From Acidobacteriota bacterium (GTDB taxonomy: Bacteria; Acidobacteriota; Aminicenantia; Aminicenantales; Saccharicenantaceae), in the NCBI GenBank assembly GCA_022711665.1, contig JAKLEN010000005.1, positions 261 through 64,260 of the forward strand: DNA of 64,000 bases. Direction: 5' to 3'. Of the stretch, positions 2,020-57,093 are shown one piece after another; the first letter of the stretch is position 1; every line of letters begins with the position of its first letter. The translations under genes and the position numbers were made by a program. The notes below the pieces were generated by a model that saw only the letters and a program-made list of their open reading frames with translations, searched no databases and was not told the DNA's origin.

Positions 2020-2541
2020 TTATTTCGTCTCTTCTGCTTTCTTGTCCCCGAGCAGGCCCAGGGTATTGAACGACTTGATGACGTCCCCGGTGAACGCGCC
2101 GATCTGTCCCTTGATCGTCCCGGCGTCGGCCCAGAGCTTCTCGACGGCGCCGACGCCGCGATGGAGCCCGATGTCGAGCTTCTTCCGGACGTCCCGCCCC
2201 TCCGGGTGGAAGAGGACGAAGGTCAGGATGACGAGGAAGGCCGTCGCCGCCGCATAGACGGGCTGGAGGGAGGGCCGCGTCAGCCACTCGAGAACGGTCC
2301 GGGCGGGGCTCTTCCGGGCCCGGGCCCGATCCGGGATCTCGTAGAGCCGGGCGACGAGGGCCGGCGACGGCTCGACCTCGGGGAAAGAGGCGGCGGCCGC
2401 CAGGGCCTCCCTCATCAGGCCGGCGAATTCGGCGCAGGCCGGGCAGGCGGCCAGGTGGCCCTCCACCTCGGCCCGCTCGGCCGGGGCCAGCTCGCCCTCG
2501 AGATAGGCGGACAGGAGCTCTTCGATCCGCTCGCAGGTCAT
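2020..2541 (-). CDS. anti-sigma factor with an N-terminal zinc-finger (HC2-type) domain and one transmembrane helix
   Basis: MTCERIEELLSAYLEGELAPAERAEVEGHLAACPACAEF... has the H-x3-C-x2-C anti-sigma signature followed by a TM helix. Its start overlaps the sigma-gene stop (ATGA). The ORF-track entry 2020..2832 is over-extended upstream. Confidence 0.8.
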   Translation of the reverse strand: MTCERIEELLSAYLEGELAPAERAEVEGHLAACPACAEFAGLMREALAAAASFPEVEPSPALVARLYEIPDRARARKSPARTVLEWLTRPSLQPVYAAATAFLVILTFVLFHPEGRDVRKKLDIGLHRGVGAVEKLWADAGTIKGQIGAFTGDVIKSFNTLGLLGDKKAEETK

Positions 2542-3092
2542 GACACGCCTCCCCGGCGATCCTTGAGGGTCTGGGCCAGCTGGATCCGGGCCCGGTTGAC
2601 CCGGGACTTGACCGTTCCCAGCGGAAGCCTGAGGATCCCGGCGATCTCCTCGTAGCTCCGCCCCTGCAGGTCCCTGAGGATGAGGATCATCCGCATGTCC
2701 GCCGACAGGGCGTTCAGCCCCCCCCAGACGAGGGCCTTGGTCTCGGCGGCCTGCAGGCTCTCCTCGGGGTCGCCGCCGGCCGGCTGGGCCAGGACGCGCT
2801 CGTCGAACTCGTCGCGCTGCGTCCTCTCCCACTTGGTCCGGCGGTACTCGTCGATGAGGTGGTTCTTGGCTAGGGTCAGGAACCAGGCCGTGAAGTTCTT
2901 GCCGAAATCATACTTCGGCAGGGCGCCGTGGAGCTTGAGGAAGACCTCCTGGGTCCGGTCCTCGGCCTCCTCCCGGCTGCCGCAGAACTGATAGGCCATG
3001 TTAAAAATCCTCCTGGCGTACGCGTCCACCAGACTTTTCCAGGCCTCTTGGCTGCCTTCCAGGCAGTCCCTGATGATCGCGTCCAAGTCCAC
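2538..3092 (-). CDS. ECF (extracytoplasmic-function) sigma-70 family sigma factor
   Basis: A GTG start at 3092 is preceded by AAGGTGGA. Region 2 (FLKLHGALPKYDFGKNFTAWFLTLAKNHLIDEYRR) and region 4 (RDLQGRSYEEIAGILRLPLGTVKSRVNRAR) are both present. Confidence 0.85.
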   Translation of the reverse strand: MDLDAIIRDCLEGSQEAWKSLVDAYARRIFNMAYQFCGSREEAEDRTQEVFLKLHGALPKYDFGKNFTAWFLTLAKNHLIDEYRRTKWERTQRDEFDERVLAQPAGGDPEESLQAAETKALVWGGLNALSADMRMILILRDLQGRSYEEIAGILRLPLGTVKSRVNRARIQLAQTLKDRRGGVS

Positions 3093-3134: not shown

Positions 3135-3224
3135 ATCCCCGGACCATTTTCGCCAAAAACGGCCTATAATGGTAGGGCGAAATGTAACTTTCTCGGGGAA
3201 AAGAGGGTTTTAGGATAACGGAGC

Positions 3225-3806
3225 ATGGACGAACAAGAGCTGATCCGCCGCGTCCAGAAGGGCGATGAGTGGGCGTTCGGCCAGATCATGGCTCTGTACA
3301 AGGACAAGATCGTGAATTACCTGTACCAGTTCACGGGCGACTACCAGAAGGCCGTCGACCTGGCCCAGGAGACCTTCCTGCGGGTCTATTTCAAGGCCGA
3401 CCGGTACAAGCCGATCGCCCCCCTGTCGTCCTGGATCTACACCATCGCCTCGAACCTGGCCAAGACCGAGTGCCGCCGCTCCCGCCGCACGGCCACCGTC
3501 CCCCTCGACGACATCCCCAACAACTACTCGAGCGGCACCTATTACGAGGACCCGGCCGATCCCGGCCTGGTGCGCAACCTCCGCGAGGCCCTCGACTCCC
3601 TCCACCCCCGCTACCGCGTCCCGGTCGTCCTCAAGGACATGGAGGGCTTTTCCCAGGAGGAGATCGCCAAGATCATCAAACGTCCGGTCGGCACCGTCAA
3701 GGCCCGGATCAGCCGGGGCCGGGAGCAGCTCCGGCTCAAGCTGGAGAAGGCCCGGCACGGCGACGAGGCCCGCGCGGTCGACCGGGAAGTGAGCGAACAT
3801 GGATGA
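3225..3806 (+). CDS. ECF sigma-70 family sigma factor, a second copy divergent from the first
   Basis: The protein carries the region 2 and region 4 motifs (LAQETFLRVYFKADRY...; VLKDMEGFSQEEIAKIIKRPVGTVKARISRGR). The Shine-Dalgarno sequence is aacGGAGc. Confidence 0.85.
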   Translation: MDEQELIRRVQKGDEWAFGQIMALYKDKIVNYLYQFTGDYQKAVDLAQETFLRVYFKADRYKPIAPLSSWIYTIASNLAKTECRRSRRTATVPLDDIPNNYSSGTYYEDPADPGLVRNLREALDSLHPRYRVPVVLKDMEGFSQEEIAKIIKRPVGTVKARISRGREQLRLKLEKARHGDEARAVDREVSEHG

Positions 3807-5854: not shown

Positions 5855-5896
5855 CGGGGGGATTGCCCCTCCAGGGGTTCGTCCCCCCTTTTTTAT
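5855..5896 (+). terminator. Rho-independent terminator of the htrA-like gene
   Basis: The stem GGGGGGA...TCCCCCC encloses a sub-hairpin and is followed by TTTTTTAT. Confidence 0.6.
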
Positions 5897-5898
5897 CG

Positions 5899-6203
5899 GC
5901 TCTTCTCCCGATTCCGGGAGGATTCCTCTCTTCGGCTTGGCTCCGTGCCGGCGCGGAGCGTACTCTGGGGAGCGGAGGTCAGAATCATGGCCGAGCACTC
6001 GAGGCCGGGATTCTGAGAGAATCTTTAAGATAGCTCTTTCTCCCGATATCTCCCAGAAGCATGGCTCCGAGCCGCTCCGCCATGCTTCTGATGGTCGCTT
6101 CGATGACTCCGCTCCCTGCCGGTCCCCCTCTCCAGCAACGGGGATCATCGAGGCAACGCACATCGCCGCCGCGAGAGGGACTTCCCGGAATCGGGAGAAG
6201 AAC
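5899..6203. mobile_element. MITE-like structured repeat, copy 1 (a non-coding element of ~305 bp with terminal inverted repeats)
   Basis: The left end is CTCTTCTCCCGATTCCGGGA and the right end is TCCCGGAATCGGGAGAAGAACC. The copy is about 85-90% identical to the copies at 11135-11412 and 56610-56935. It lies between flanking TTTTTAT-like sequences and contains the conserved hairpin CAGAAGCATGG...CCATGCTTCTG. Confidence 0.7.
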
Positions 6204-6207
6204 CTTT

Positions 6208-6789
6208 TTAATCCCCGGCGTTCAACCAGAGATTCCTGAGCCTCTCGATCTCCGCGGCCGGGAGCCGGGACTCGTATCCCCGGGCCGCCCTCTGCCGCAG
6301 GGCCTCGTAGAGGATGACGGCGACCGAGACCGAGAGGTTGAGGCTCTGGACCATGCCGAACATGGGGATGCGGACGTTCCGGTCGGCGAAGGCCTGGCAC
6401 TCCTCGCTGATGCCCTCCGCTTCGCTGCCGAAGACCAGAGCCGTCGGCCGGGCGAAGTCGACCTCGGAGTAGGGAACGGCGTCGCGGACGAGATGGGTGG
6501 CCACGATCTCGTAGCCGGCCCTCTTCAAGGGTTCGAGGCAGGCCGCCGGCGTCGGGGAGACGCCGATCTCCAGCCACTTGTCGGCCCGGGTCGAGATGGC
6601 CTTGTTGGGCCGCAGGAGCTCGGGGTTGGGGCCGATGAGGTCCAGAAAGAGGACGCCGGCCGCGTCGCAGGTGCGCATGACGGCGCTGGCGTTGTGGGCG
6701 TTGGTCAGGCCTTCGAGGACGACCCGCAGATCGGCCTGGCGGCCGGCCAGGACCCTCTCGACCTTGGCGATACGCTCCGGCGTGGGCAT
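6208..6789 (-). CDS. SpoU/TrmH-family RNA 2'-O-methyltransferase
   Basis: The SPOUT motifs are present (LVFGSEAEGIS...; GMVQSLNLSVSVAVILYE). Confidence 0.8.
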   Translation of the reverse strand: MPTPERIAKVERVLAGRQADLRVVLEGLTNAHNASAVMRTCDAAGVLFLDLIGPNPELLRPNKAISTRADKWLEIGVSPTPAACLEPLKRAGYEIVATHLVRDAVPYSEVDFARPTALVFGSEAEGISEECQAFADRNVRIPMFGMVQSLNLSVSVAVILYEALRQRAARGYESRLPAAEIERLRNLWLNAGD

Positions 6790-6886: not shown

Positions 6887-6975
6887 GCCGGTGTGGCGGA
6901 ACTGGCAGACGCGCGGGACTCAAAATCCTGTGCCCAGAAATGGGTGTGTGGGTTCGATTCCCTCCACCGGCACCA
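6887..6975 (+). tRNA. tRNA-Leu with anticodon CAA
   Basis: GCCGGTG...CACCGGC forms a 7-bp acceptor stem, followed by the discriminator A and an encoded CCA. The anticodon loop is CUCAAAA. A long variable arm is present, as is the T-arm GGTTCGATTCC. Confidence 0.85.
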
Positions 6976-7091
6976 CCAGAGGTCGGGGATTAGGCTGCGC
7001 CTTTCGAGGCTTGGGGGGCCGGGGCCCGGAGCGCGGCGAACGGAGACAACGTTCGCGGGCCTTCGCGCGTCATAACCAAGAAGGACAATCA

Positions 7092-8657
7092 ATGCTGAAA
7101 AACAACCTCCGTTCCGGCATCATCCTTGGCCTTTTCGCATTCCTTGCCGGGCTCGCGGCCGCCTGCTCCAAGGCGCCGGCTGTCGACGAGCCGGCCCACG
7201 GCGAGTCCGTCCTCGACCGCGTCGTCCGCACTGAGCCGGCCCTGGCAACATCCATCCCCGAGACCTCCCGCTGGTGCGACAGGCTCCCGGGCCTGGACAA
7301 GCGCCGGGTCGATGCCGGCGACGCCCGGCTCTACGTCGAGGTCGAAGGCCGGGGGACGCCGATCGTCCTCATCAATGGCGGCCCCGGCGGGACGCACCAC
7401 TATTTCCACCCCTGGTTCTCGCGGCTGAAAAGGTCGGCCCGGGTCGTCTACTACGACCAGCGCGGCTGCGGCCTCTCGGATTTCGCGCCGGGGGAGAAGG
7501 GCTATTCCGTCGAGCAGGCCGTCGAGGACCTCGAGGCCGTCCGCCGGGCGCTCGGCTGCGAGAGATGGGTCGTCCTCGGCTACAGCTACGGCGGCTTCCT
7601 GGCCCAGCTCTACACCGTCCTCCACCCGGAGAGAGTCGCCGGCCTAGTCCTGCTGGGCGCATCGACCGGGCTGCACGTCGATGACGGCCCGTCCCGGGAA
7701 GGGGACTTCATCTCCGAAGCGGAGGAGAGCCGGATGGCCGCGCTTCGCCGCGAGCTCGACGCCTACGCCCAGGCCAACGCGCTGCCGAGGGAGCAGCGGG
7801 TCGCTCTCTCGATCTACAACAATTTCCTCAACGGCGACTGGAAGCGGCAGCACTTCTACCGGCCTTCGCCGGACCGGCTGGCCCAGATGGCCCGCTATGA
7901 ATGGGTGAACGACCAGAGCTTCAACAGCCTCATGGGCCAATCGGAAAGCCGCTGGGATTTCGCCGGGGCGTTCGCGGGAAATCCCATCCCGACCCTGATC
8001 CTCGAAGGCCGCTGGGACCTGACCTGGGGGGAGAAGAAGAAAGACTCGCTCAAGGGCAATCATCCGAACAGCCGCCTGGCCGTTTTCGACAAGGCGGCGC
8101 ACGGCATCTACGACGAAGATCCCGAGGCCTTCTTCCGGACCCTCAAAGATTTCCTCGCGGGTCTCGCCCCGATCGACGAGGCCTCGCTCGCCGGATACAA
8201 GTCCTTCCTGGCCGGATGGGTCGCCGGGATGAAAGCCCGTCCCGGGTTCGCCATCGCCGGCCTGGACTGGGGGCTTGCGTCCAGCCGGGAGCTCGCCGGC
8301 CGGTACTTGCCGGAGTGGCTGGACTCGCTCAGCGATTTCCAGAACTTCCTGCGGACCGGGTTCGCCCTGTATGACGTCGGACGGTACGCCGAGGCGCTGG
8401 CCGTCTTCGAGCGGCTCGAGGCCAAGCTCGGCGGCGAGCCGCCGTTGAAGGGCCTCGGCCTGATCTGGCAGGGGCACATGCTCGATCTCCTGGGCCGGCG
8501 GCCGGAGGCGCTCGGCCGCTACCGGAAGGCCGCGGACCTGGGCCTGGCCATGACCTGGTCGCACTCGCAGTACCGGCTGAAATACGAGATCAGCCCATAC
8601 GCCGGGGAAAGGCTCAAAACGCCCTTTCAACGGATCGAGAACGGTTCGGACGACTGA
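7092..8657 (+). CDS. lipoprotein alpha/beta-hydrolase (proline-iminopeptidase-like) with C-terminal TPR-like helical extension
   Basis: AAGGA precedes the ATG at 7092. The lipobox is LAAACS. An HGGPGG-like oxyanion region is followed by the nucleophile elbow GYSYGG. The ORF-track start at 6885 would overlap the tRNA, so I rejected it. Confidence 0.75.
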   Translation: MLKNNLRSGIILGLFAFLAGLAAACSKAPAVDEPAHGESVLDRVVRTEPALATSIPETSRWCDRLPGLDKRRVDAGDARLYVEVEGRGTPIVLINGGPGGTHHYFHPWFSRLKRSARVVYYDQRGCGLSDFAPGEKGYSVEQAVEDLEAVRRALGCERWVVLGYSYGGFLAQLYTVLHPERVAGLVLLGASTGLHVDDGPSREGDFISEAEESRMAALRRELDAYAQANALPREQRVALSIYNNFLNGDWKRQHFYRPSPDRLAQMARYEWVNDQSFNSLMGQSESRWDFAGAFAGNPIPTLILEGRWDLTWGEKKKDSLKGNHPNSRLAVFDKAAHGIYDEDPEAFFRTLKDFLAGLAPIDEASLAGYKSFLAGWVAGMKARPGFAIAGLDWGLASSRELAGRYLPEWLDSLSDFQNFLRTGFALYDVGRYAEALAVFERLEAKLGGEPPLKGLGLIWQGHMLDLLGRRPEALGRYRKAADLGLAMTWSHSQYRLKYEISPYAGERLKTPFQRIENGSDD

Positions 8658-8765: not shown

Positions 8766-11225
8766 TTGGACGTGCTAACATGGATTCGAAGGGCGGGAAA
8801 CCGGATAAAAAACCGAACGATGGCCTCCGTGGTGGTCGGCCTGTTCATGGTGTCGTTCTCCCTTCTCTCGCTGGAGATCGCCTTTACCAGGGTCCTTTCG
8901 GTCCTGCTGTCGTACCATTATGTCTTCCTCGCGATCTCTCTCGCCTTGATGGGATTGGGGCTGGGAGGGCTTTGGGCTCACTTTGCCGGGCCGCGGGCGG
9001 CGGGCCCGAACGGAGGCTCGAGATCCCTTTCTCTCCAGGCCAGTCTCTATGCCTTCTGCGTCGCCGCCTCGCCGCTCCTGATCATCTTCGTCAGCCGGCA
9101 GGAGAGGATCCGGGACAACGTCCTGATATTCGGCCTGATCCTCTTTTTGCCCTTCCTCCTGGCCGGCAGGGTCGTCGCGGAGGTCTTCCGCGCGTTTTCC
9201 GCCATGAGCGCCCGGCTGTACGGAGCCGATCTGGCCGGGGCGGCCGCCGCCGCGGTCGGGGCGGTCCTGACCCTGAACGCCTTCGGCGGAATGACCGCCG
9301 TTTTCTTTTTAGCCGTGATCGCTTCCGCGGCGGCCCTTCTCTTCGCCCTGGCCGGCCGCGGCGGGAAGAAAGGGCCCGTCCTGCCTCCTCTCGCGGCCCT
9401 GGCGCTCTCGATCGTTCTCCTGGCCGCGGGCTCGAGCGGCCGTTTGGCGGCCGGTCTGGAGGTCGGGGCCAACCCGGCCAAGGAGATCCATGACGTCCTC
9501 TCCAGGCCGGAGTTCAGAGGGAAGATCGTCGAATCCAGGTGGAGCGCTTTCGGGCGGACCGATCTCGTCGAGTTCGAAGGCTACCCCGATCAGATGGAGA
9601 TCTATCTGGACGGCACCGCCGGGACGCCGATGTACCGGTTCTCAGGATCGGCGGCTGACCCCGATCCGGCTGTCCGCAGGCTTCGGACCTCGTTTTCGGG
9701 GTACTTTCCCTTCCTCTTCCTGAAGGAGAACGAGCGGGACGACGGCCTGATCATCGGGCCGGGAGGAGGCCGGGATATCCTCGTGATGCTCCTGGGTGGA
9801 GTGAAGAGGATCACGGCCGTCGAGGTGAACGGCGATCTCGTGGATATCGTCCGCGGCCAGGCCCGGTACAACGGCGGCATCTATTCCGGCCTGGCGAATG
9901 TCCGGATCGCCGTCGACGATGGAAGGAGCTTCCTGAAGCGTCAGAGAGGCCGGTACGACCTGATCATGCTCAGTCTCCCCGTCACCGCCACCAGCCGGAG
10001 CCTCGAAGGGTTCGCCCTGACCGAGAACTATCTCTTCACCGCGGATTCCATCAAGGACTACGTCGGCCATCTGACCGACGAAGGGCGCCTGATCGTCGTC
10101 TGCCACGGCGATGCCGAAGTCTCGCGGCTCCTGATCCTCGCGCTCTCGGCGCTTAAAGATACGGCCATCGGCCAGGCGGAAGCGATGACGCGCATCTGCG
10201 TCCTGGGCTCGGAGAAATACCCCGTCTTCGTCCTGAAGAAGACGCCCTTCGATCCGGAGGTCGCGTCCTCCATGGCCGATTCCCTCGGATCTTTCGGGGT
10301 CCGCCTGGACGCGTCCTATTTTCCCTACATCGGAAAAGAGGAGACGCGGAGATCCATGCTCACGGCCCTGGGCGACGGCCGGCTGAGCCCGCAGGGTTTC
10401 GAGGAAAAGATCCGCGCCCTCGGCTATGACGTCGGTCCGGTGTCGGACGACCGGCCTTTCTTTTACAAGCTCGAGCCGGGGCTGCCGAAGGCCGTCTCGC
10501 GGGGGCTCTGGATCTCCGCTCTCCTGGCGTTCGTCGCCCTGGCCGCGCCGCTCCTGCGCCGCGGAACGGGGCGGGACCCTGCGCCGCGGGATCCCCGGTT
10601 CATCGTCCTGTTCTCGCTGCTCGGCCTGGGGTTCATGCTGGTCGAGATCTCCCTGATCCAGAGATTCGTGCTTTTTCTCGGGCGGCCCGTTCTCTCGATC
10701 TCGGTCATCCTGTTTGCGCTCCTGGCGGGCGCCGCGGCGGGCAGCCTGCGCAGCGGCAGGGTCGCGGCGGGCCGCTTGACCGCAAGCCTGGCCCGGGCCT
10801 CGCTCGCCGTCTTCGCGGTCATCCTGGTCTTCAGCGCCGCTCTGCCTCCGGTCCTCGGGCACGTCCTGGGATCGAGCCTGCCGCTTCGCCTGATCATGAC
10901 CGCCGTCCTTCTCGTCCCCTTGGGTTTCTTCATGGGTTTCCCTTTTCCCCTGGCCCTCAGGGCGCTGGAGGCGAAGAACGCCGGGGATCTCATCCCCTGG
11001 ATGTGGGGATTGAACGGCGTCTGCTCCGTCCTCGGCTCGACGGCGGCCGTGGCCATCGGCATCCTGGCGGGATTCAGCCGGGCCTTCCTCGCCGGGGGAT
11101 TCTGCTATCTCGCGGCCTTCGCGTTGTTCGCCGTATCCCGGCCGGCGCCCGCCCGGCCGGCCCGTAGCGGACTCTTGGGAGCGGAGGTCAGGATCACGGC
11201 CGAGGGCTCGAGGCCGGGATCCTGA
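8766..11225 (+). CDS. polytopic membrane protein with a central spermidine-synthase-like (PABS/aminopropyltransferase-like) domain
   Basis: It has more than 10 TM helices and the signature GPGGGRDILVMLLGGVKRITAVEVNGDLVD...DLIMLSLP. The true start may be the ATG at 8820. The last ~30 codons and the stop are encoded by repeat copy 2. Confidence 0.7.
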   Translation: MDVLTWIRRAGNRIKNRTMASVVVGLFMVSFSLLSLEIAFTRVLSVLLSYHYVFLAISLALMGLGLGGLWAHFAGPRAAGPNGGSRSLSLQASLYAFCVAASPLLIIFVSRQERIRDNVLIFGLILFLPFLLAGRVVAEVFRAFSAMSARLYGADLAGAAAAAVGAVLTLNAFGGMTAVFFLAVIASAAALLFALAGRGGKKGPVLPPLAALALSIVLLAAGSSGRLAAGLEVGANPAKEIHDVLSRPEFRGKIVESRWSAFGRTDLVEFEGYPDQMEIYLDGTAGTPMYRFSGSAADPDPAVRRLRTSFSGYFPFLFLKENERDDGLIIGPGGGRDILVMLLGGVKRITAVEVNGDLVDIVRGQARYNGGIYSGLANVRIAVDDGRSFLKRQRGRYDLIMLSLPVTATSRSLEGFALTENYLFTADSIKDYVGHLTDEGRLIVVCHGDAEVSRLLILALSALKDTAIGQAEAMTRICVLGSEKYPVFVLKKTPFDPEVASSMADSLGSFGVRLDASYFPYIGKEETRRSMLTALGDGRLSPQGFEEKIRALGYDVGPVSDDRPFFYKLEPGLPKAVSRGLWISALLAFVALAAPLLRRGTGRDPAPRDPRFIVLFSLLGLGFMLVEISLIQRFVLFLGRPVLSISVILFALLAGAAAGSLRSGRVAAGRLTASLARASLAVFAVILVFSAALPPVLGHVLGSSLPLRLIMTAVLLVPLGFFMGFPFPLALRALEAKNAGDLIPWMWGLNGVCSVLGSTAAVAIGILAGFSRAFLAGGFCYLAAFALFAVSRPAPARPARSGLLGAEVRITAEGSRPGS

Positions 11226-11412
11226 GAAATATCTGAAGAAAGCGCTTTCTTCCGATATTTCCCAGAAGCATGGCTCCGAGCGGCTCCGCCATGCTTCTGA
11301 TGGTCGCTTCGAGGACTCCGCTCCCTGCCGGCCCCCCTCTCCAGCGACGGGGACCTTCGAGGCAACGCCCATCGCCGCCGCGAGAGGTAATCCCGGAGAC
11401 GGGAGAAGAACC
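11135..11412. mobile_element. MITE-like structured repeat, copy 2 (5'-truncated and overlapping the 3' end of the upstream CDS)
   Basis: It aligns with copies 1 and 3 from CCGGCCGGCGC...GTAGCGGACTCTTGGGAGCGG through the right TIR ...TCCCGGAGACGGGAGAAGAACC. Confidence 0.7.
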
Positions 11413-11414
11413 AT

Positions 11415-16706: not shown

Positions 16707-17786
16707 ATGAAAAAATGGATCATCCGCGGTCTGGCCCTCGTCCTGCTGGCCGTGTTCTTCTACTTCCTGTTCGCCTGCGGGCATAAAAAGGCGGAGATCA
16801 AGCTGGTCGCGGCCTCCCGGGGCGACATCCAGGAAAAGGCCCTGGCCGTGGGGACCATCGAGCCCGAGAAGGAGATCAAGGTCAAGTCGACGATCCCGGG
16901 CATCGTGTCCGAGGTCCTGTTCAAGGTCGGCGACTTTGTCCGGGCCGGGGCGCCGCTCTTCAAGATCTCGCCCAATCCCACCCCGCTCGAATACGTCGAG
17001 GCCCGGCGGGCCATGGAGCTGGCCGAGGTGACCATGCGCAAGATCAAGGGCGACTGGACCCGCCAGCTCGAGCTCTACCAGGGGAACCTCATCTCCAAAG
17101 CCGAGATGGAGGCCATCGAGGGCGCCTACCGGGAGGCCGAGCTGCGCTTCCGGACCTCGTCCGAGCGCTTCGAGCTCCTGGAGAAGGGCCGCATCCGGAT
17201 GGCCAACCGGGATATCGATTCCCTGGTCAATTCGCCGATCGGCGGCATCGTCCTGTCCCAGGGCGTTTTCCAGGGCGATCCCGTCGTCCCTCTGACCAAT
17301 TACCAGCCGGGCACCGAGCTCTGCTCGCTCGCCGACATGGGCAGCCTGCTCTTCAAGGGCACGGTCGACGAGATCGACGTCGGCAAGATCGCCGATGGCA
17401 TGCCGGCCGAGATCCAGATCGGAGCCCTGCCCGACGCCAAGATACCGGGCCGCGTGGACCGCATCTTCCCGAAGGCCAAGAAAGAGGGCAACGCCACGCT
17501 CTTCGATATCTGGGTCCTTATCAGCGATTCCGCCGGGGCGACGCTCCGGGCCGGATTCTCGGCGACGGCCAGCATCCGCATCCGGGAGAGCCGGGGAGCC
17601 GTCCTCATCCCCGAGCGCCTGATCCTGTTCGAGGACGGCAAGAAGTTCGTCGAGGTCCCCGATGGCGAGAAGACCCGGAAGGTCGAGCTCCGGACGGGCC
17701 TGTCCGACGGCCTCAACATCGAGGTCCTGGACGGGCTCAAGGAAGGGGACCAGGTCGTGGAGCGGCCGCCCCGGGAGATCAAGTGA
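16707..17786 (+). CDS. HlyD/MacA-family periplasmic adaptor subunit of an ABC-type efflux system
   Basis: An N-terminal TM helix is followed by biotinyl-lipoyl-like and beta-barrel segments. The gene overlaps the next gene by 4 nt. Confidence 0.8.
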   Translation: MKKWIIRGLALVLLAVFFYFLFACGHKKAEIKLVAASRGDIQEKALAVGTIEPEKEIKVKSTIPGIVSEVLFKVGDFVRAGAPLFKISPNPTPLEYVEARRAMELAEVTMRKIKGDWTRQLELYQGNLISKAEMEAIEGAYREAELRFRTSSERFELLEKGRIRMANRDIDSLVNSPIGGIVLSQGVFQGDPVVPLTNYQPGTELCSLADMGSLLFKGTVDEIDVGKIADGMPAEIQIGALPDAKIPGRVDRIFPKAKKEGNATLFDIWVLISDSAGATLRAGFSATASIRIRESRGAVLIPERLILFEDGKKFVEVPDGEKTRKVELRTGLSDGLNIEVLDGLKEGDQVVERPPREIK

Positions 17787-19033
17787 TCGCGATCTTCTTC
17801 CGGAATTTCTTCCGCGACCTGGTGCGGCAGCCCCTGCGGACCGCCCTGACCCTCTCGGGCGTCGTCTGGGGGACGTTCTCCGTCGTCCTCCTGCTGGCCT
17901 TCGGGGATTCCGTGTCCAAGGCCCAGATCAAGCGCTTCCACGGCATGGGCCAGGGCATCGTGCTCGTTTTCCCGGCCCGGACGACACTGCCGTGGCAGGG
18001 CTTCCTGCGAGGCAAGGCCGTGCGGATCACCCCGGAGGAGGTCGAGTCCATCCCCGGCAAAGTCCCCGGCATCGAGCTCATCAGCCCCGAGTTCGTCGGC
18101 AGCCGCCTCATCCGCTTCGGCCGCCGCGAGTACCGCAATACCGTCCGCGGCGTCAACCCGCAGTTCGAGCTCATGCGCAACACCATCGCCGCCAGGGGGA
18201 GGTTCCTCGATCCCGAGGACATGGCCGGCCGCAAGCGGGTCTGTTTCATCGGCAACGTCCTGGCCTCGGACCTTTTCGGGACCGACGAGCCGGTGGGCCG
18301 GACGATCCTGGTCGACAGCGTCCCCTTCACCGTCATCGGCGTCATGATGACGAAGCTCCAGAGCTCCAACTACAACGGCCAGCGCGACGAGCGCTGCGCC
18401 TTCATCCCCTGGACGACGTACGCCTCCCTCTACGGATCGAAGTACGTTTCCAACTTCATCTTCCGGCCGATCGACGCCTCCCGCAGCAAGGCGGCCATGG
18501 AGGACATCAAGGGCCTCCTCGCGAAGCTCCTCGGCTTCTCCCCGGCCGACCCGGACGCCCTCGGCGTCTGGGACACGCTCGAGTTCGAGAAGCAGTTCAC
18601 GACCTTCTTCCTGGCTTTCACCATTTTTCTCGGCGTCATCGGGACGTTCACGCTCCTCGTCGGGGGCGTCGGCGTGGCCTCGATCATGCGGGTCGTCGTC
18701 GACGAGCGGACCCGCGAGATCGGCGTCAAGCTGGCCGTCGGAGCCCGGCGCCGGACCATCCTCTGGCAGTTTTTCAGCGAATCGCTGGCCATCATGCTCC
18801 TCGGCGGCCTGGCCGGCTTCGGGCTGGCCGCCGCCGTCCTCCAGGCGCTCCGGGCCCTGCCGCAGTCCGGCTCCGGCGACCTGGGCTTTACCGGGTTCGT
18901 CGGCCTTCCAGTTCTCAATCCCCTGGTGGTCGTGTCCACGATCTTCATCCTGCTCGTGATCGGGGTCGCCGCCGGCCTCATCCCGGCCCGGACGGCCGCC
19001 TCGACCGATCCCATCGAGGCCCTCAGGAAATAG
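17783..19033 (+). CDS. ABC transporter permease, FtsX/MacB-like (first of two)
   Basis: It has the MacB-type periplasmic domain and four TM helices, ending ...DPIEALRK. Confidence 0.8.
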   Translation: MIAIFFRNFFRDLVRQPLRTALTLSGVVWGTFSVVLLLAFGDSVSKAQIKRFHGMGQGIVLVFPARTTLPWQGFLRGKAVRITPEEVESIPGKVPGIELISPEFVGSRLIRFGRREYRNTVRGVNPQFELMRNTIAARGRFLDPEDMAGRKRVCFIGNVLASDLFGTDEPVGRTILVDSVPFTVIGVMMTKLQSSNYNGQRDERCAFIPWTTYASLYGSKYVSNFIFRPIDASRSKAAMEDIKGLLAKLLGFSPADPDALGVWDTLEFEKQFTTFFLAFTIFLGVIGTFTLLVGGVGVASIMRVVVDERTREIGVKLAVGARRRTILWQFFSESLAIMLLGGLAGFGLAAAVLQALRALPQSGSGDLGFTGFVGLPVLNPLVVVSTIFILLVIGVAAGLIPARTAASTDPIEALRK

Positions 19034-19045
19034 GGGAGGAAGGCG

Positions 19046-20296
19046 ATGAACGGCACCCTGCCCCGGTTCTTCTGGAGCGAATACCGCAAACGCCGCCGCC
19101 GGACCTCGCTCATCACCTTCGCGCTCTTCTGGGGAACGCTCTCGATCCTCCTGCTGATGGCCTTCGGCCGGGGCCTGACCGCGCAGTTCCACGCCGCTTT
19201 CAGCGGCCTGGGCCAGACGCTGATCATGGTCTACGGCGGGCAGACGTCCGTGACCTTCGAGGGCCTGCCCAAGGGCCGCACGATCCGGCTCTATCCGGAG
19301 GACGTCGATTACCTCCGGGAGCGGATCCCCGAGATCGGGCTGATCGCCCCGGAGTCGTACAACGGCTGGGCCGTCTCGGCCGGAGGCAAGGAGATCAATC
19401 GCACGGTCCATGGCACGACCGCGGCCTTCGGGCTCATGCGCAGCCAGGTGGCCCAGACCGGCGGCCGCTTCCTCGACGACGACGACGACCGCCTGGGGCG
19501 GAAGGTCGCCTTCATCGGCTGGAAGGTCGCCGCCGACCTCTTCGGGACGAAGGAGGCCGTCGGCCGGACGATCATCGTCAACCGCGTCCCGTTCACCGTC
19601 GTCGGGGTCCTGCAGAAGAAGGTCCAGGACTCGATGTACAACGGGCCCGACGCCGAGCAGGTCTACCTGCCGTTCCGGTCGTTCCGGCAGATAGACAATC
19701 AGCGTTACCTCGATCAGATCCATATCCGGCCGCTCCAGGCCTCGTCCTCCAAGCTGATCGAGTCGCGCGTCCGGACGCTCCTCGGGCGCAAGTCGCGCTT
19801 CGATCCGGCCGACCGCTACGCCATCAGCTTCTGGAACACGATCGAGGACGCCAAGGAGGGGCAGGCCATCTTCCAGGGCATCGAGATCTTCCTCGGCATC
19901 ATGGGCGGGTTGACGCTGCTCATCGGCGCCGTCGGCGTGACCAACCTGATGTACGCCGCGGCCAAGGAGAGGACCAAGGAGATCGGCGTCAAGCTGGCCA
20001 TCGGCGCCCGGCGGCGGATCATCATCCAGCAGTTCCTCCTGGAGACGACGTTCGTCTTCGCCAAGGGAACGTTCTGGGGTTTCATCCTGGCTTTCAACCT
20101 CATCCACCTCGTCCGCCTGGTCCCCATCAACTACGATTCGTTCGGCGTCGAGGCCTACCTGCTGCGGCCCCAGCTCTCGCCCGGCATCCTCCTGATCTAT
20201 CTGGCCGTGCTGGGCGTCCTCGTCTTCCTGTCGGGGATCTTCCCGGCCCTCCGGGCCTCGCGGGCCAATCCCATCGAATCCCTGCGCTACGAATAG
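19046..20296 (+). CDS. ABC transporter permease, FtsX/MacB-like (second of two)
   Basis: It is a paralogue of the previous gene, ending ...NPIESLRYE. Confidence 0.8.
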   Translation: MNGTLPRFFWSEYRKRRRRTSLITFALFWGTLSILLLMAFGRGLTAQFHAAFSGLGQTLIMVYGGQTSVTFEGLPKGRTIRLYPEDVDYLRERIPEIGLIAPESYNGWAVSAGGKEINRTVHGTTAAFGLMRSQVAQTGGRFLDDDDDRLGRKVAFIGWKVAADLFGTKEAVGRTIIVNRVPFTVVGVLQKKVQDSMYNGPDAEQVYLPFRSFRQIDNQRYLDQIHIRPLQASSSKLIESRVRTLLGRKSRFDPADRYAISFWNTIEDAKEGQAIFQGIEIFLGIMGGLTLLIGAVGVTNLMYAAAKERTKEIGVKLAIGARRRIIIQQFLLETTFVFAKGTFWGFILAFNLIHLVRLVPINYDSFGVEAYLLRPQLSPGILLIYLAVLGVLVFLSGIFPALRASRANPIESLRYE

Positions 20297-41594: not shown

Positions 41595-41645
41595 GGGTTA
41601 AACCTGCCTTTTACCCATTTGTGGGTAAAAGGCAGGTTTGACCCC
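41595..41645. repeat. near-perfect 22-bp-stem palindrome between the RND operon and the permease genes
   Basis: GGTTAAACCTGCCTTTTACCCA-tttg-TGGGTAAAAGGCAGGTTTGACC has a single G:T mismatch. Its arm sequences recur flanking repeat copy 3 (56596-56606 and 57019-57029). Confidence 0.6.
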
Positions 41646-41666
41646 CTCTTGTCCCTATGGTATATC
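41638..41666 (+). promoter_or_regulatory. sigma70-type promoter (TTGACC-N17-TATATC) 9 nt upstream of the permease ATG at 41676
   Basis: The -35 overlaps the right arm of the palindrome. Confidence 0.45.
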
Positions 41667-50043: not shown

Positions 50044-50898
50044 TCAATAGAGGACCTTGGCCTCGCCGTTGACCTTGATCAGCCGGCCGATCTCGTCCAG
50101 GACGAGGTCCCGGCGGACCAGGACGGCCCGGATCTCCTCGTCGGTCAGGTAGGCGCCGACGGCCGAGCGGACGGCGGCGAAGTCGAGGGCCCTGACCCTG
50201 GCCACCACGGCCCGGGGCAGCTCGCTCATGAGCTTCGGCCCGTCGGGCGACTTGGCCGAGTAGAGGAGGCTCCTGAGGAAGCGGCCCGAGGTCCGGAACG
50301 AGCGCGAGTGGTCGATCAGCACCATCCGCCAGTCGGCGGTGATCAGGATCTGGTTCAGGTGCCGGTCCTCGTTGGCGATGAGGTTGTCGAAGAGCCGCTG
50401 GAGGTAGGTGGCCCGGTTCCAGGCCGGGACCTGCCGCGGCGGGATCTTGAGGCCCCGGTCCTCCTTGTCCCGCAGCGACATGCAGCCGTCGACCCAATAC
50501 TGGCAGGACCCCCGCTCGTCGCGGAAGCGGCGCTCGACGGTGGGCGGCACCAGCTCCAGGCCGAGGAGCTTGTCCAGGCGGTAGGCGGCGATCTCGTACT
50601 GCCAGCCCTCCCAGTAGCCGCCCATGCGGCCCTGGGCGTTCTTCCACAGCCCGCGGTGCCTGACGCCGCCGAGCTCGAGCATCAGGACCCAGGGGGAGGT
50701 CACTGCTTCGGCGCCCGTCATCTGCCGACTCTCGCTCTCGACGACCACGGCCTCCGCCAGGAAAGCCTCCCAGCGGCCGCGCTGGGCCAGGTCCTCGGCC
50801 CGGAACTGCGGCGGCGCGGCCGGGTCCTCGCAGCCGGCCGGGAGGGCGGCCGCCAGGGCCGCGGCCAGGGCCAGGATGACGGCCGACCGCGGGCTCAA
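50044..50898 (-). CDS. exported lipoprotein with an atypical-kinase-like domain (PI3/PI4-kinase-like catalytic-loop signature DRHxN...IDHS), paralogue 1
   Basis: A TTG start is preceded by GGAGG. The lipobox is LPAGC. WKNAQG...WQYEIAAYRLDKLLGLELVPP resembles the PI3K Lys/alphaC region. IANEDRHLNQILITADWRMVLIDHSRSF has the spacing of the PI3K DRHxxN...IDFG motif. The kinase assignment is an inference from motifs, not from a search. Confidence 0.6.
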   Translation of the reverse strand: MSPRSAVILALAAALAAALPAGCEDPAAPPQFRAEDLAQRGRWEAFLAEAVVVESESRQMTGAEAVTSPWVLMLELGGVRHRGLWKNAQGRMGGYWEGWQYEIAAYRLDKLLGLELVPPTVERRFRDERGSCQYWVDGCMSLRDKEDRGLKIPPRQVPAWNRATYLQRLFDNLIANEDRHLNQILITADWRMVLIDHSRSFRTSGRFLRSLLYSAKSPDGPKLMSELPRAVVARVRALDFAAVRSAVGAYLTDEEIRAVLVRRDLVLDEIGRLIKVNGEAKVLY

Positions 50899-51725
50899 TA
50901 GACAACCTCCTGGCCCTGTTCCCCGATCATCCGGGCGATCTCCCGGACGAGCAGGTCGCGGCGGGACAGGACGGCCCGGATCTCCCGGTCAGTGAGGGTC
51001 GCGCCGACGGCGGCGCGGATGTTGTCGAAGGTCAGCGTGCCGATCCGGTCGACGAACCAGCGGGGCAGGCGCCGGAAAAGGAACGGCTCCCCGGCGTCCC
51101 CTCTCTTGATGCCGTCGCGGCCGAACATCAGCCGCTTGGAGAATTCGCCGCCGCTGCGGAAGGCCCGGGAGTGGTCGAAGAGGATCATCCGCCAGTCCTC
51201 GGTGTAGAGTATATTCTGCTGGGTCCGGTCTTCGTTGGCGATCAGGCTGTCCCAGGCCCGGGCCAGGTACTTCATCTTTTCCGTGCGGTCCTGGGCCTCG
51301 TCCGGGATGCGGATGCCTTCCTCCACGAGCTTGAGCAGGCTGTATTTATTCTCGGCCCAAAGGACCAGGGCGCCCTTCCGGCCCCGGAAGGTGCGCTCGA
51401 CGGCCGGCGGGACCATGTTCAGCCCCAGGAGCTTGTCCAGGCGGTAGGCGGCGATCTCGTACTGCCAGCCTTCGAGATGGCCGTTCTGCAGGCCGCGGGG
51501 GTTCTTCCAGGCGGCCTTGCGCTCGACGCCGTCCTTCTCCAGGTAGAGCCGCCAGGGACGGGTCACGCCTTCGCCGATCTCCTCCGAGCGGACGATCCGG
51601 GCCGTCAGCAGGAAGTCCTCCATGGCCGCCCGCCGGGCGACCTCTTCGGCCGTGAACTGGGCGGAGGCGACGGACGGCCAGGCCGCCGCCAGGACCAGGG
51701 ACAGGAGAACGAGGGATCGTTTCAT
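50895..51725 (-). CDS. exported protein with the same atypical-kinase-like domain, paralogue 2 (catalytic His replaced, DRTQQN)
   Basis: A signal peptide ...VASA|QF is followed by WQYEIAAYRLDKLLGLNMVPP and IANEDRTQQNILYTEDWRMILFDHSRAF. The start is TGAATG-coupled to the upstream gene. Confidence 0.6.
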   Translation of the reverse strand: MKRSLVLLSLVLAAAWPSVASAQFTAEEVARRAAMEDFLLTARIVRSEEIGEGVTRPWRLYLEKDGVERKAAWKNPRGLQNGHLEGWQYEIAAYRLDKLLGLNMVPPAVERTFRGRKGALVLWAENKYSLLKLVEEGIRIPDEAQDRTEKMKYLARAWDSLIANEDRTQQNILYTEDWRMILFDHSRAFRSGGEFSKRLMFGRDGIKRGDAGEPFLFRRLPRWFVDRIGTLTFDNIRAAVGATLTDREIRAVLSRRDLLVREIARMIGEQGQEVVY

Positions 51726-55192: not shown

Positions 55193-56587
55193 ATGAAAGG
55201 ACTCGCGACCATGAGACAACGAACGGATCTCGCGGCGGGGGGCCGGCGGGGGAGGGGACCGGCGGCCCGCCTGGCGCTGGCGGCCGGTCTGGCGGCGGTC
55301 CTGGGGCTGGCCCTGGCGTCCTGCGCCGGTCGGGAGAGGCCGGCCGGGCCCGGGACGACGGCGGCCGCGGCCCGGGTCAAGCCCGGCGTCGAGGTTTTCC
55401 TGGAGAAGCACCTCGACCTGGTCAAGGGCAAGCGGGTCGGCTTGATAACAAACCAGACCGGCACGGACGCCGGGCTGCGTTCGACCGTGGAGCTCTTCCA
55501 GTCCAACCCCGCCATCCGGCTGGTCGCCCTTTACGGCCCCGAGCACGGCGTCCGGGGCGACGCCCAGGCCGGCGTCTACGTGCCGTTCTATTACGACCAG
55601 GCCTATAAGCTGCCCGTATTCAGCCTCTACGGACAATCCTTCAAGCCCGATCCGGGCATGCTCAGGAACATAGACGAGTACATGCGCTCCTTCGACACCC
55701 GGGAGGCGGGCAAGGTGCCGGAGGGGGGCATGGTCAAGGACGTCGACGTGCTCGTCTTCGACATCCAGGACGTCGGGACTCGCGTCTACACCTACGTCGC
55801 CACCATGGCCTACGCCATGCAGGCCGCGGCCGAGGCCGGGCTCGACTTCATCGTCCTGGACCGGCCTGCGCCGATCAACGGCGTCGACATGGAAGGGGCC
55901 ATCCTCGAGTACCCGGAGCTCAGCTCGTTCATCGGGCTGTTCCCGATCCCGCTGCGGTTCGGCATGACGGCCGGCGAGCTGGCCCGCCTGTTCAACGACA
56001 AGTTCCTGGCCCGCACGGCCAAGCTGACGGTCATCCCCGTGGAGGGCTGGTCGCGGTCGATGTGGTTCGACGAGACCGGGCTGCCGTGGGTCATCCCCTC
56101 GCCCAACATGCCGACCCTGGACACGGCGACCGTCTACCCCGGTCTGGTGGCCATCGAGGGCACCAACCTGTCGGAGGGCCGGGGCACGACCCGGCCGTTC
56201 GAGCTCTTCGGCGCGCCGTGGCTCGACGGCCACGCCCTGGCCGCCCGGCTGAACGCCCTCGGCCTGCCGGGGGTCCGCTTCCGGGAAGCCTGGTTCACGC
56301 CGTCCTTCTCCAAGTTCCAGGGCGAGCTCTGCGGCGGCTGCCAGATTCACGTGACCGACCGGACGGCCTTCCGCCCGGTGGCCACAGTCCTTCACATCAT
56401 CAGGACGGTGCGGGACGCGGCCCCGGGCAAGTTCGCCTTCCACGCCGATTACTTCGACAAGGTCATGGGCACGGCCTCCGTCCGCAAGGCCCTGGAAGCG
56501 GGGACGGACGTGGCCGCCATCCTGGAGAGCATGCGGCCCGGCCTGGAATCTTTCGCCGCTTTGCGCCGGGCTTATCTGCTCTATTAA
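55193..56587 (+). CDS. DUF1343-family lipoprotein (NamZ-like exo-beta-N-acetylmuramidase family)
   Basis: The lipobox is LASCAG. KRVGLITNQTGTD, the conserved DUF1343 N-terminal motif, is present. Confidence 0.7.
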   Translation: MKGLATMRQRTDLAAGGRRGRGPAARLALAAGLAAVLGLALASCAGRERPAGPGTTAAAARVKPGVEVFLEKHLDLVKGKRVGLITNQTGTDAGLRSTVELFQSNPAIRLVALYGPEHGVRGDAQAGVYVPFYYDQAYKLPVFSLYGQSFKPDPGMLRNIDEYMRSFDTREAGKVPEGGMVKDVDVLVFDIQDVGTRVYTYVATMAYAMQAAAEAGLDFIVLDRPAPINGVDMEGAILEYPELSSFIGLFPIPLRFGMTAGELARLFNDKFLARTAKLTVIPVEGWSRSMWFDETGLPWVIPSPNMPTLDTATVYPGLVAIEGTNLSEGRGTTRPFELFGAPWLDGHALAARLNALGLPGVRFREAWFTPSFSKFQGELCGGCQIHVTDRTAFRPVATVLHIIRTVRDAAPGKFAFHADYFDKVMGTASVRKALEAGTDVAAILESMRPGLESFAALRRAYLLY

Positions 56588-56609
56588 AGAAAGAAGGGGT
56601 CAAACCTAA

Positions 56610-56935
56610 GGTTCTTCTCCCGATTCCGGGAAGTCCCTCTCTCGGGCTCTAGCTCGGGGATGTCCTCTTGCTCCCCGGCCGGCGCGTAGCGGACTCTTGG
56701 GAGCGGAGGTCAGGATCACGGCCGAGCGCTCGAGGCCGGGATCCTGAGAAATATCTTCATAAAGCGCTTTCTCCCGATATCTCCCAGAAGCATGGCTCCG
56801 AGTCGCTCCGCCATGCTTCTGATGGTCGCTTCGAGGACTTCGCTCCCTGCCGGCCCCCCTCCTCCAGCAACGGGGAACTGCGAGGACAATCTCCTCGCCG
56901 CCTCGAGAGTGAATCCCGGAAATGGGAGAAGAACC
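56610..56935. mobile_element. MITE-like structured repeat, copy 3 (full length, with both TIRs)
   Basis: The left TIR is GGTTCTTCTCCCGATTCCGGGAAGTCCCTCTCTCG and the right TIR is CGAGAGTGAATCCCGGAAATGGGAGAAGAACC. The 9-mer AAACCTAAG is present at 56602-56610 and again at 56961-56969. The copy sits inside a split palindrome related to 41595-41645. Confidence 0.7.
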
Positions 56936-57093
56936 AAACTTAGGCTTTTCAGAAAGGATTAAACCTAAGTCTTTTTACTTTTTCGCCCTATACCCGCCGT
57001 AAAAAAGTTAAAGGGTTCAGGTTTGACCCCGTCTTTGCTAGAATAAAGCCCTTCCCCTTAACGGGACGATCATCAGGCAAGGAGATTGACGCG

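Follow-up and report, generated by a model that had tools for sequence, protein, structure and literature searches.

A modular family of inverted-repeat elements, very probably non-autonomous transposons, in Candidatus Aminicenantes

The sequence analyzed here is a stretch of 64,000 nucleotides (the 64-kb window), comprising positions 261 to 64,260 of contig JAKLEN010000005.1 from the Acidobacteriota assembly GCA_022711665.1, with a G+C content of 68%. Three copies of a repeat bounded by terminal inverted repeats (TIRs) are present in this window. Their neighbors are ordinary genes for an HtrA-type protease, a SpoU methylase, a membrane protein, a TonB-type outer-membrane barrel, a NamZ-like protein and a glutamine synthetase. 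In an earlier note, made from the sequence without database searches, the repeat had been compared to transposable elements of the miniature inverted-repeat type (MITEs), and an expressed family of structured small RNAs (sRNAs) had been named as an alternative. From the analyses described below it appears very likely that all three represent copies of a MITE, a non-autonomous DNA transposon that is multi-copy in and specific to Candidatus Aminicenantes. MITEs as a kind of element are well known; the family is new, and its inner parts are interchangeable.

The positions of the copies and of their parts are compiled in Table 1. The limits given previously for copies 1 and 3 could be retained, with copy 1 now placed at 5898-6204, while copy 2 starts at about 11152 and not at 11135. 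By blastn, copy 3 (56610-56935) is 90.9% identical to copy 2 (11152-11413) over 264 nt and 87.2% identical to copy 1 (5943-6204) over 266 nt, and copies 1 and 2 share 88.6% over 263 nt, in agreement with the identity of about 85-90% estimated before. Further copies or remnants were detected in the window neither when the whole element, its arms or a short family variant served as blastn queries, nor by nhmmer with the core, nor by a TIR search allowing up to five mismatches. TIRs of 33 bp had been ascribed to the repeat. They are present in copies 1 and 3, whose two ends match at 84-88% over 32-33 nt (blastn), and the right end of copy 1 is complementary to the left end of copy 3 at 97% over 38 nt. 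Copy 2, from which the left arm and the left TIR are absent, has only the right one, ending at 11412. Likewise, the same nested hairpins had been described for every copy. This applies to the 11-bp stem CAGAAGCATGG-15 nt-CCATGCTTCTG (6054-6090, 11263-11299 and 56785-56821), but the second hairpin, TCAGGATC...GATCCTGA in copies 2 and 3, is replaced in copy 1 by a compensatory variant, TCAGAATC...GATTCTGA.

Table 1. Position of the repeat copies and of their constituent parts in the window
Feature	Position	Strand	Description
Copy 1, full-length, 307 bp	5898..6204	+	left TIR, short A arm, 180-nt core, long B arm, right TIR
Copy 1, left TIR	5898..5930	+	GGCTCTTCTCCCGATTCCGGGA...
Copy 1, right TIR	6172..6204	-	...TCCCGGAATCGGGAGAAGAACC
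Copy 1, core cassette	5947..6122	+	GCCGGC...GCCGG; closing stem P1 and hairpins H1, H2, H3
Copy 1, core hairpins	H1 5979-6016; H2 ~6015-6053; H3 6054-6090
Copy 1, left target-site duplication, 8 bp	5890..5897	.	TTTTTATC; T-tail of terminator hairpin 5873-5889
Copy 1, right target-site duplication, 8 bp	6205..6212	.	TTTTTAAT
Copy 2, 5'-truncated, 261 bp	11152..11412	+	core, B arm, right TIR (~11380-11412)
Copy 2, core	11156-11331		H1 11188-11225; H3 11263-11299
Copy 3, full-length, 326 bp	56610..56935	+	left TIR, long A arm, core, long B arm, right TIR
Copy 3, TIRs	left 56610-56645; right ~56903-56935
Copy 3, core	56678-56853		H1 56710-56747; H3 56785-56821
Copy 3, left target-site duplication	56602..56609	.	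AAACCTAA
Copy 3, right target-site duplication	56936..56943	.	AAACTTAG

As proposed in the earlier note, no reading frame is conserved between the copies. No open reading frame (ORF) is common to all of them, and stop codons are scattered across the six frames. Variable positions are distributed over the codon phases as 299/298/282, without a period of three, and gaps are mostly 1 nt long. Short ORFs beginning with an ATG inside H3, on both strands, were considered as possible genes and rejected, since 1-nt insertions or deletions break the frames and a three-base period is missing. The copies are intergenic and do not belong to a larger gene. A Pfam scan of 48 ORFs of the window detected no domain of a transposase, an integrase or a recombinase, in line with the earlier statement that the window has no transposase, and this result is consistent with mobilization in trans.

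If the repeats are transposons, insertion should be indicated by duplicated target sites. For this analysis, 22 full-length copies from the window and from related contigs of metagenomes and metagenome-assembled genomes (MAGs) were used. The 8 nt flanking both TIRs match on average at 5.9 of 8 positions. Since all targets are runs of A or T, non-self pairings of the same polarity served as control; their mean was 4.9 of 8, and the observed value was reached in none of 20,000 permutations. The fraction of matches peaks at k = 7-8 and drops sharply at k = 9-10. In several copies, 7-8 of the 8 nt match, including non-homopolymer positions (AAGAAAAA/AAGAAAAA, CTTTTTTT/CTTTTTTT, CTCTTTTA/CTTTTTTA and GAAATAAA/GAAAAAAA). 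The insertion target is nearly always a run of A or T, typically an intrinsic terminator's T-tail, in a genome with 68% G+C. At both ends of the 22 copies, GGYTCTTCTCCC...GGGAGAAGARCC is found, and the TIRs form the limit of similarity. Their length varies across the family from about 22 to 38 nt, starting with GG(C/T)TCTTCTCCC; they follow the form GGYTCTTCTCCC-NNN-TCCGGGA.... Copy 1 begins with GGCTCTTCTCCC, most other copies with GGTTCTTCTCCC.

Related genomes contain sites that are free of the element precisely where copies 1 and 3 are inserted. The site of copy 1 is empty in four related loci (L046-L049; SpoU 91-92% identical), in which the spacer between the SpoU and HtrA genes comprises 65 nt (...CCTTTTTTATTCCCC...). 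There, the sequence reads ...GTCCCTCC-TTTTTTATT-CCCCGGCGTTCA... (CC-TTTTTTATT-CCCC, 9 nt), and in the window ...GTCCCCCC-TTTTTTATC-(307-bp element)-TTTTTAAT-CCCCGGCGTTCA..., so that 9 nt have become 9 + 8 nt. Similarity to the empty site resumes directly outside the TIRs; insertion occurred in the T-tail belonging to the terminator hairpin listed in Table 1. For copy 3, the locus L055 (NamZ 83% identical) shows the empty junction GGGGTCAAACCTA/CACCTTTTAAC, also given as GGGGTCAAACCTA/CACCTTTTAACTTTTT. In addition, the spacer between the genes for NamZ and glutamine synthetase measures 169 nt in the P0242 contig (NamZ 86% identical) versus 506 nt in the window, a difference (337) that nearly equals 326 + 8. 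Where the window has copy 2, a relative (L052/L053; membrane protein 89% identical) retains a remnant of about 45 nt from the B arm and the right TIR. The insertion of copy 2 is accordingly of greater age, and its erosion has taken a different course in each of the two lineages. Additional pairs differing in presence and absence are L015 versus L034 (276 nt) and L003 3547-3932 versus window positions 3165-3175.

Two of these comparisons revealed further differences between the window and its relatives. In L003, from a related Aminicenantes MAG, the insertion of about 386 nt lies where the window has 11 nt between two divergent genes for extracytoplasmic function (ECF) sigma factors (2538-3092 and 3225-3806). 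It consists of half a core (the 5' strand of P1 plus H1) fused to unrelated palindromic arms and is without GGTTCTTC ends. In L046, the region beside SpoU (1-2074) contains small genes typical of an integrated element, for a DnaG-type primase/DUF3987 protein and an HTH_17 protein; the matching place in the window (6887-8657) is occupied by a tRNA gene (6887-6972) and an alpha/beta hydrolase gene. The relative may thus harbor an integrative element at this site.

For the distribution of the family, the exact H3 hairpin pattern was searched in one genome of each of 185,579 species, and it was found only in three Candidatus Aminicenantes MAGs, with four loci. Metagenomes were scanned with a 20-mer from the core, yielding 37 loci. 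At least 16 of these reside on seven contigs of the metagenome Ga0209507, together 1.84 Mb in length, and five are located on a single contig of 594 kb, in accordance with the high genomic copy number deduced previously from three copies in one window. A Candidatus Aminicenantes MAG encodes a protein with 100% identity to the NamZ-like protein of the window. Two short-read contigs of the genome with this identical NamZ, L045 and L054, break off inside the TIR at ...GGTTCTTCTCCCGATTCCGGGAAGTCCC, which is expected from a dispersed repeat in an assembly. In a plasmid collection no match to copy 3 was obtained (blastn, distant mode), and viral contigs contained no match to the core 20-mer. The TIR pattern gave three matches in viral contigs; the best (L006, 21 of 22 bases) lies in long ORFs, has no partner TIR and was attributed to chance. 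A literature search combining Aminicenantes and MITE gave nothing relevant. As far as could be found, this is the first MITE family described in Candidatus Aminicenantes, an uncultured and widespread lineage of sediments and the subsurface.

Comparison of all copies revealed an organization that had been missed in the earlier note: the family is modular, with identical ends and arms around interchangeable inner parts. From the outside inwards, the TIR is followed by arm A or arm B, by optional inner segments a2/b2 that pair with each other, and finally by a cassette at the center. The window copies have as their cassette a core of about 180 nt, bounded by GCCGGC...GCCGG, with the closing stem P1 and the hairpins H1, H2 (with an A/T-rich, variable loop) and H3; the core is a quasi-palindrome centered on AAAGCGCTTT. 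Another form, of 194-195 bp, carries a 42-nt hairpin cassette instead (L017 968-1162, L028 6991-7185 and L033 6311-6504). A subfamily with inverted core and without a2/b2 is represented by six copies of 263-270 bp, all in Ga0209507, and a single copy of 88 bp has no cassette at all (L040 3680-3767). Overall, the elements range in size from 88 to 334 bp. Neighboring insertions in tandem occur in L017 and L033. The core-bearing subfamilies and the 42-nt form each include several copies with target duplications of their own, such as AAGAAAAA/AAGAAAAA for the inverted-core subfamily, and the 88-bp copy is likewise flanked by a target duplication. Each variant has therefore transposed. In this way, the architecture of ends, arms and cassettes illustrates how MITE subfamilies diversify, while the general understanding of MITEs is unchanged by it.

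Which enzyme mobilizes the element may be deduced from its ends. End sequences of the type GGYTCTTC combined with an 8-bp duplication match published ISL3 elements as well as an ISL3-derived MITE, and judged by these features an ISL3-family transposase is the most likely candidate. For the insertion sequence (IS) ISArsp7, inverted repeats (IRs) GGCTCTTCGCGG... and an 8-bp direct repeat (DR) are described, and for ISPst2 the DRs TTTTTAAA and CAAAAAAG (PMC6305408). These ISL3 elements are alike in their IRs (GGCTCTTCGCGG... or GGGTAT...) and 8-bp DRs, some of them in A/T runs, but they are 1.4-3 kb long and encode a transposase, in contrast to the non-coding Aminicenantes element of 88-334 bp (PMC6305408). 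In Microcystis aeruginosa, a MITE and ISL3 transposase genes have ends starting with GGCTCTTCG in common, along with 8-nt direct repeats, and mobilization of the MITE in trans by an ISL3-family transposase is presumed (PMC11448079). This MITE is also short, non-coding and multi-copy, with inverted ends starting with GGCTCTTC and an 8-nt duplication (PMC11448079). However, it belongs to a different phylum and has no sequence in common beyond the first ~8 bases, and the Aminicenantes element differs by much longer TIRs (22-38 nt), a nested palindrome, interchangeable cassettes and a partner IS that was not found.

Tn3-derived TIMEs are similar in being non-autonomous, with IRs of about 38 bp, a preference for AT-rich targets and a mosaic or modular interior (PMC4133298). 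Their duplications, however, comprise 5-6 bp (PMC4133298), and their ends are of the Tn3 type, GGGG... (PMC6305408), versus 8 bp and GGYTCTTC here. Both the length of the duplication and the type of end exclude the possibility that the element is a Tn3-derived TIME. Small intergenic repeats bounded by TIRs are also known as Correia elements in Neisseria and as ERIC/IRU elements in enterobacteria. They form long hairpins when transcribed, occur in length variants that differ by internal insertions or deletions, and can alter the 3' ends of transcripts. They have no sequence in common with the Aminicenantes element and reside in other hosts, Correia elements duplicate TA, and the effects on transcripts are experimentally documented in these systems.

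Several observations weigh against the interpretation as an ISL3-type MITE. An autonomous element combining these TIRs with a transposase was found neither in the window nor in related loci totaling about 0.35 Mb; pairs of TIRs in the loci retrieved are 88-334 bp apart, and none was detected at a distance of 1-2 kb. The match to ISL3 rests on about 8-9 terminal bases and the length of the duplication and is suggestive, and duplications of 8 bp are also produced by other families such as IS6 and IS1595. Across genomes, the core seems to be more conserved than the TIRs, but this may largely be an ascertainment effect, as core sequences were used as queries. Finally, recognizable TIRs are missing from some copies. 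In four loci from more distant genomes (L004, L015, L025 and L037), the TIRs are degenerate or absent, and arm remnants can be recognized; taking these loci as decayed copies is an interpretation.

One locus with a single TIR was considered as a possible parent IS. In L014, about 90 nt of flanking sequence, the left TIR of the MITE and the A arm are duplicated (860-950 and 2753-2850) around a segment of 1.85 kb. This segment has a lower GC content (~55-60%) and contains an ORF of 490 aa with a weak ceramidase-like match. Since the ORF does not specify a transposase, the segment was rejected as parent IS; it looks like a sequence inserted into the MITE or recombined at it.

That the 180-nt core could be a functional structured RNA, either a gene or a module of 3' untranslated regions, acting as sRNA, as terminator or stabilizer or as protein-binding RNA, with the TIR element merely as vehicle, was evaluated with a set of 36 distinct cores. 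Pairing in H1 is kept through double changes at six of 12 pairs (UA to GC, AU to GC, CG to UA), with 93% of the cells paired. Over the whole structure, both sides are changed in 16 pairs versus 10.9 in shuffles (two of 500 shuffles reach 16), and 38 cells with changes on both sides compare with 19.7 (reached in none of 500). G-U pairs exceed A-C pairs on the + strand, 175 to 66 overall and 17 to 6 in H1, and H3 along with some 55 nt around it is near-invariant in the 36 copies. Folding of the element on the + strand is also beyond that of shuffled sequences (z = -7.4), but on the - strand it is just as good (z = -6.4). That H3 varies so little is artificial at least in part, since an exact H3 sequence was a requirement in both scans of the collections. 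In long inverted repeats compensatory changes can arise without selection on an RNA, by intramolecular template switching or gene conversion (quasipalindrome mutagenesis). No RNA family could be assigned: at the gathering level, a scan of the whole window with Rfam 15 detected only the tRNA at 6887-6972, and at E <= 10 nothing was found inside the element in region 56560-57060, with two chance-level matches outside. A sigma-70-type promoter was not detected in or beside copies 1 and 3. The core occurs in either orientation to its own arms and also to the upstream gene (21 same, 16 opposite, with genes called by a rough caller based on G+C at third codon positions, GC3), which is no clear bias. 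The expressed sRNA family named in the earlier note thus gained no positive support from Rfam, promoters or orientation. The relative has lost most of the element at the copy 2 site. Other transposed members carry the 42-nt cassette or none, so that the core is not needed for spread. An RNA with the transposon as mere carrier is accordingly quite improbable. A slim chance is also given to the core being a functional module on an ISL3-type MITE vehicle, as a structured RNA at 3' ends or as a site for a protein or a recombinase in cassette exchange or inversion. If this were true, the host genome would contain dozens of dispersed, selectable copies of it and not mere junk.

The interchangeable interior could also reflect a nested composite, in which the core, with inverted ends of its own of about 16-25 nt, represented either another MITE or an invertible segment. 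It would have entered an older hairpin MITE composed of TIRs and arms, and the composite would then have been amplified. The same arms do enclose the core in both orientations, the 42-nt cassette or nothing, and the two halves of the core are mutually inverted with ~62-75% identity (reverse-strand blastn, nhmmer self-matches). CCGGCC is present at both core/arm junctions of copy 3 and once in the core-less form. Furthermore, at two loci with flanks common to different genomes (L001/L041 and L013/L032), the arms agree in orientation and the core is flipped. All of the ~45 cores retrieved, however, lie between recognizable or decayed A and B arms, so there is no evidence of a core moving alone. 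Beside the L013 element lies a solo TIR remnant, so that the flipped orthologues may go back to separate insertions at one terminator hot spot. With this remnant and the differing junctions, inversion of the core in situ at L013/L032 and L001/L041 could not be separated from repeated insertion into one terminator. Such a composite origin is unlikely, and it would refine rather than replace the explanation as a MITE. Even less can be said for REP/REPIN-type palindromes, spread by RAYT, an IS200/IS605-like tyrosine transposase, acting on single-stranded hairpins. REP and REPIN sequences are intergenic, hairpin-rich repeats, often located beside terminators and arranged as inverted hairpin doublets. 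The core indeed contains two related hairpins of ~37 nt, H1 and H3, in inverted arrangement, and three H3-like hairpin units form a tandem array in L031. REP/REPIN and derivatives of IS200/IS605, on the other hand, use a single-strand HUH mechanism and have neither TIRs nor target duplications, both of which are present here, and no Y1-transposase domain was found among the 48 ORFs of the window compared with Pfam. This origin is hardly credible.

The array in L031 (6219-6507) consists of units of about 96 nt and is located beside a short family member without TIRs. Each unit contains its hairpin, with the compensatory stem variants CAGAAGCCTGG/CCAGGCTTCTG and CAGAAATCCGG/CCGTATTTCTG, and apparent ends of tRNA genes, judged by eye, flank the array on both sides. 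Another structural difference was noted between L008 (5966-6073) and L015 (2124-2313). These contigs are 99.9% identical, and a deletion of 35 nt takes one half of H1. Either a hairpin-mediated deletion has really occurred here, or the difference is an artefact of assembly.

The MITE interpretation is supported by target duplications, empty sites, a non-coding body and further copies in four MAG loci and 37 metagenome loci, and none of the three findings that would refute it according to the earlier note was made. Insertion takes place almost always into A/T runs, typically T-tails of terminators, with duplication of 8 bp of the target, and copies decay by terminal or internal deletion. The element would be mobilized in trans by a DDE transposase whose gene lies elsewhere in the genome and which most likely belongs to the ISL3 family. 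A probable side effect for the host would be a long hairpin behind genes, which could serve as terminator or stabilizer of 3' ends; at copy 2 the coding end of the membrane-protein gene is replaced. The element points to an ISL3-like transposase that is active in this lineage. It also explains contig breaks in Aminicenantes assemblies and is relevant to assembly and annotation, and recent versus old insertions are usable as markers for strain typing.

In the concrete case of copy 2, a MITE has rewritten a host protein's C-terminus and supplies the 3' end of a gene. In its first ~70 nt (11152-11225), this copy contains the final ~20 codons (...SGLLGAEVRITAEGSRPGS), together with the stop codon, of ORF 8766-11225 on the + strand. 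The product is a membrane protein of ~790-820 aa, named 'predicted membrane-bound spermidine synthase' in some sources. In the relative with a membrane protein 89% identical, the protein ends about 19 codons earlier with its own TGA. A microhomology, GGCCGG, is found at the junction of copy 2 and the gene.

A second, small hairpin repeat, TTAAACCT...AGGTTTGACCCC, is present in the window at 56590-56609 plus 56951-57036 and at 41597-41650, upstream of a glutamine-synthetase-like gene (57094) and an amino-acid permease gene (41589), respectively. Copy 3 is inserted in the left arm of this hairpin 5' of the glutamine-synthetase-like gene. The sole Rfam match of the hairpin, to a microRNA precursor, is at chance level. 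Two pairs of adjacent paralogues are also present. The genes at 17783-19033 and 19046-20296 specify two MacB/FtsX-type permeases with DNA segments of 71-75% identity, and those at 50044-50898 and 50895-51725, without Pfam match, have a segment of 125 nt with 80% identity in common. These pairs (17783-20296 and 50044-51725) explain the direct-repeat families D2, D7 and D8.

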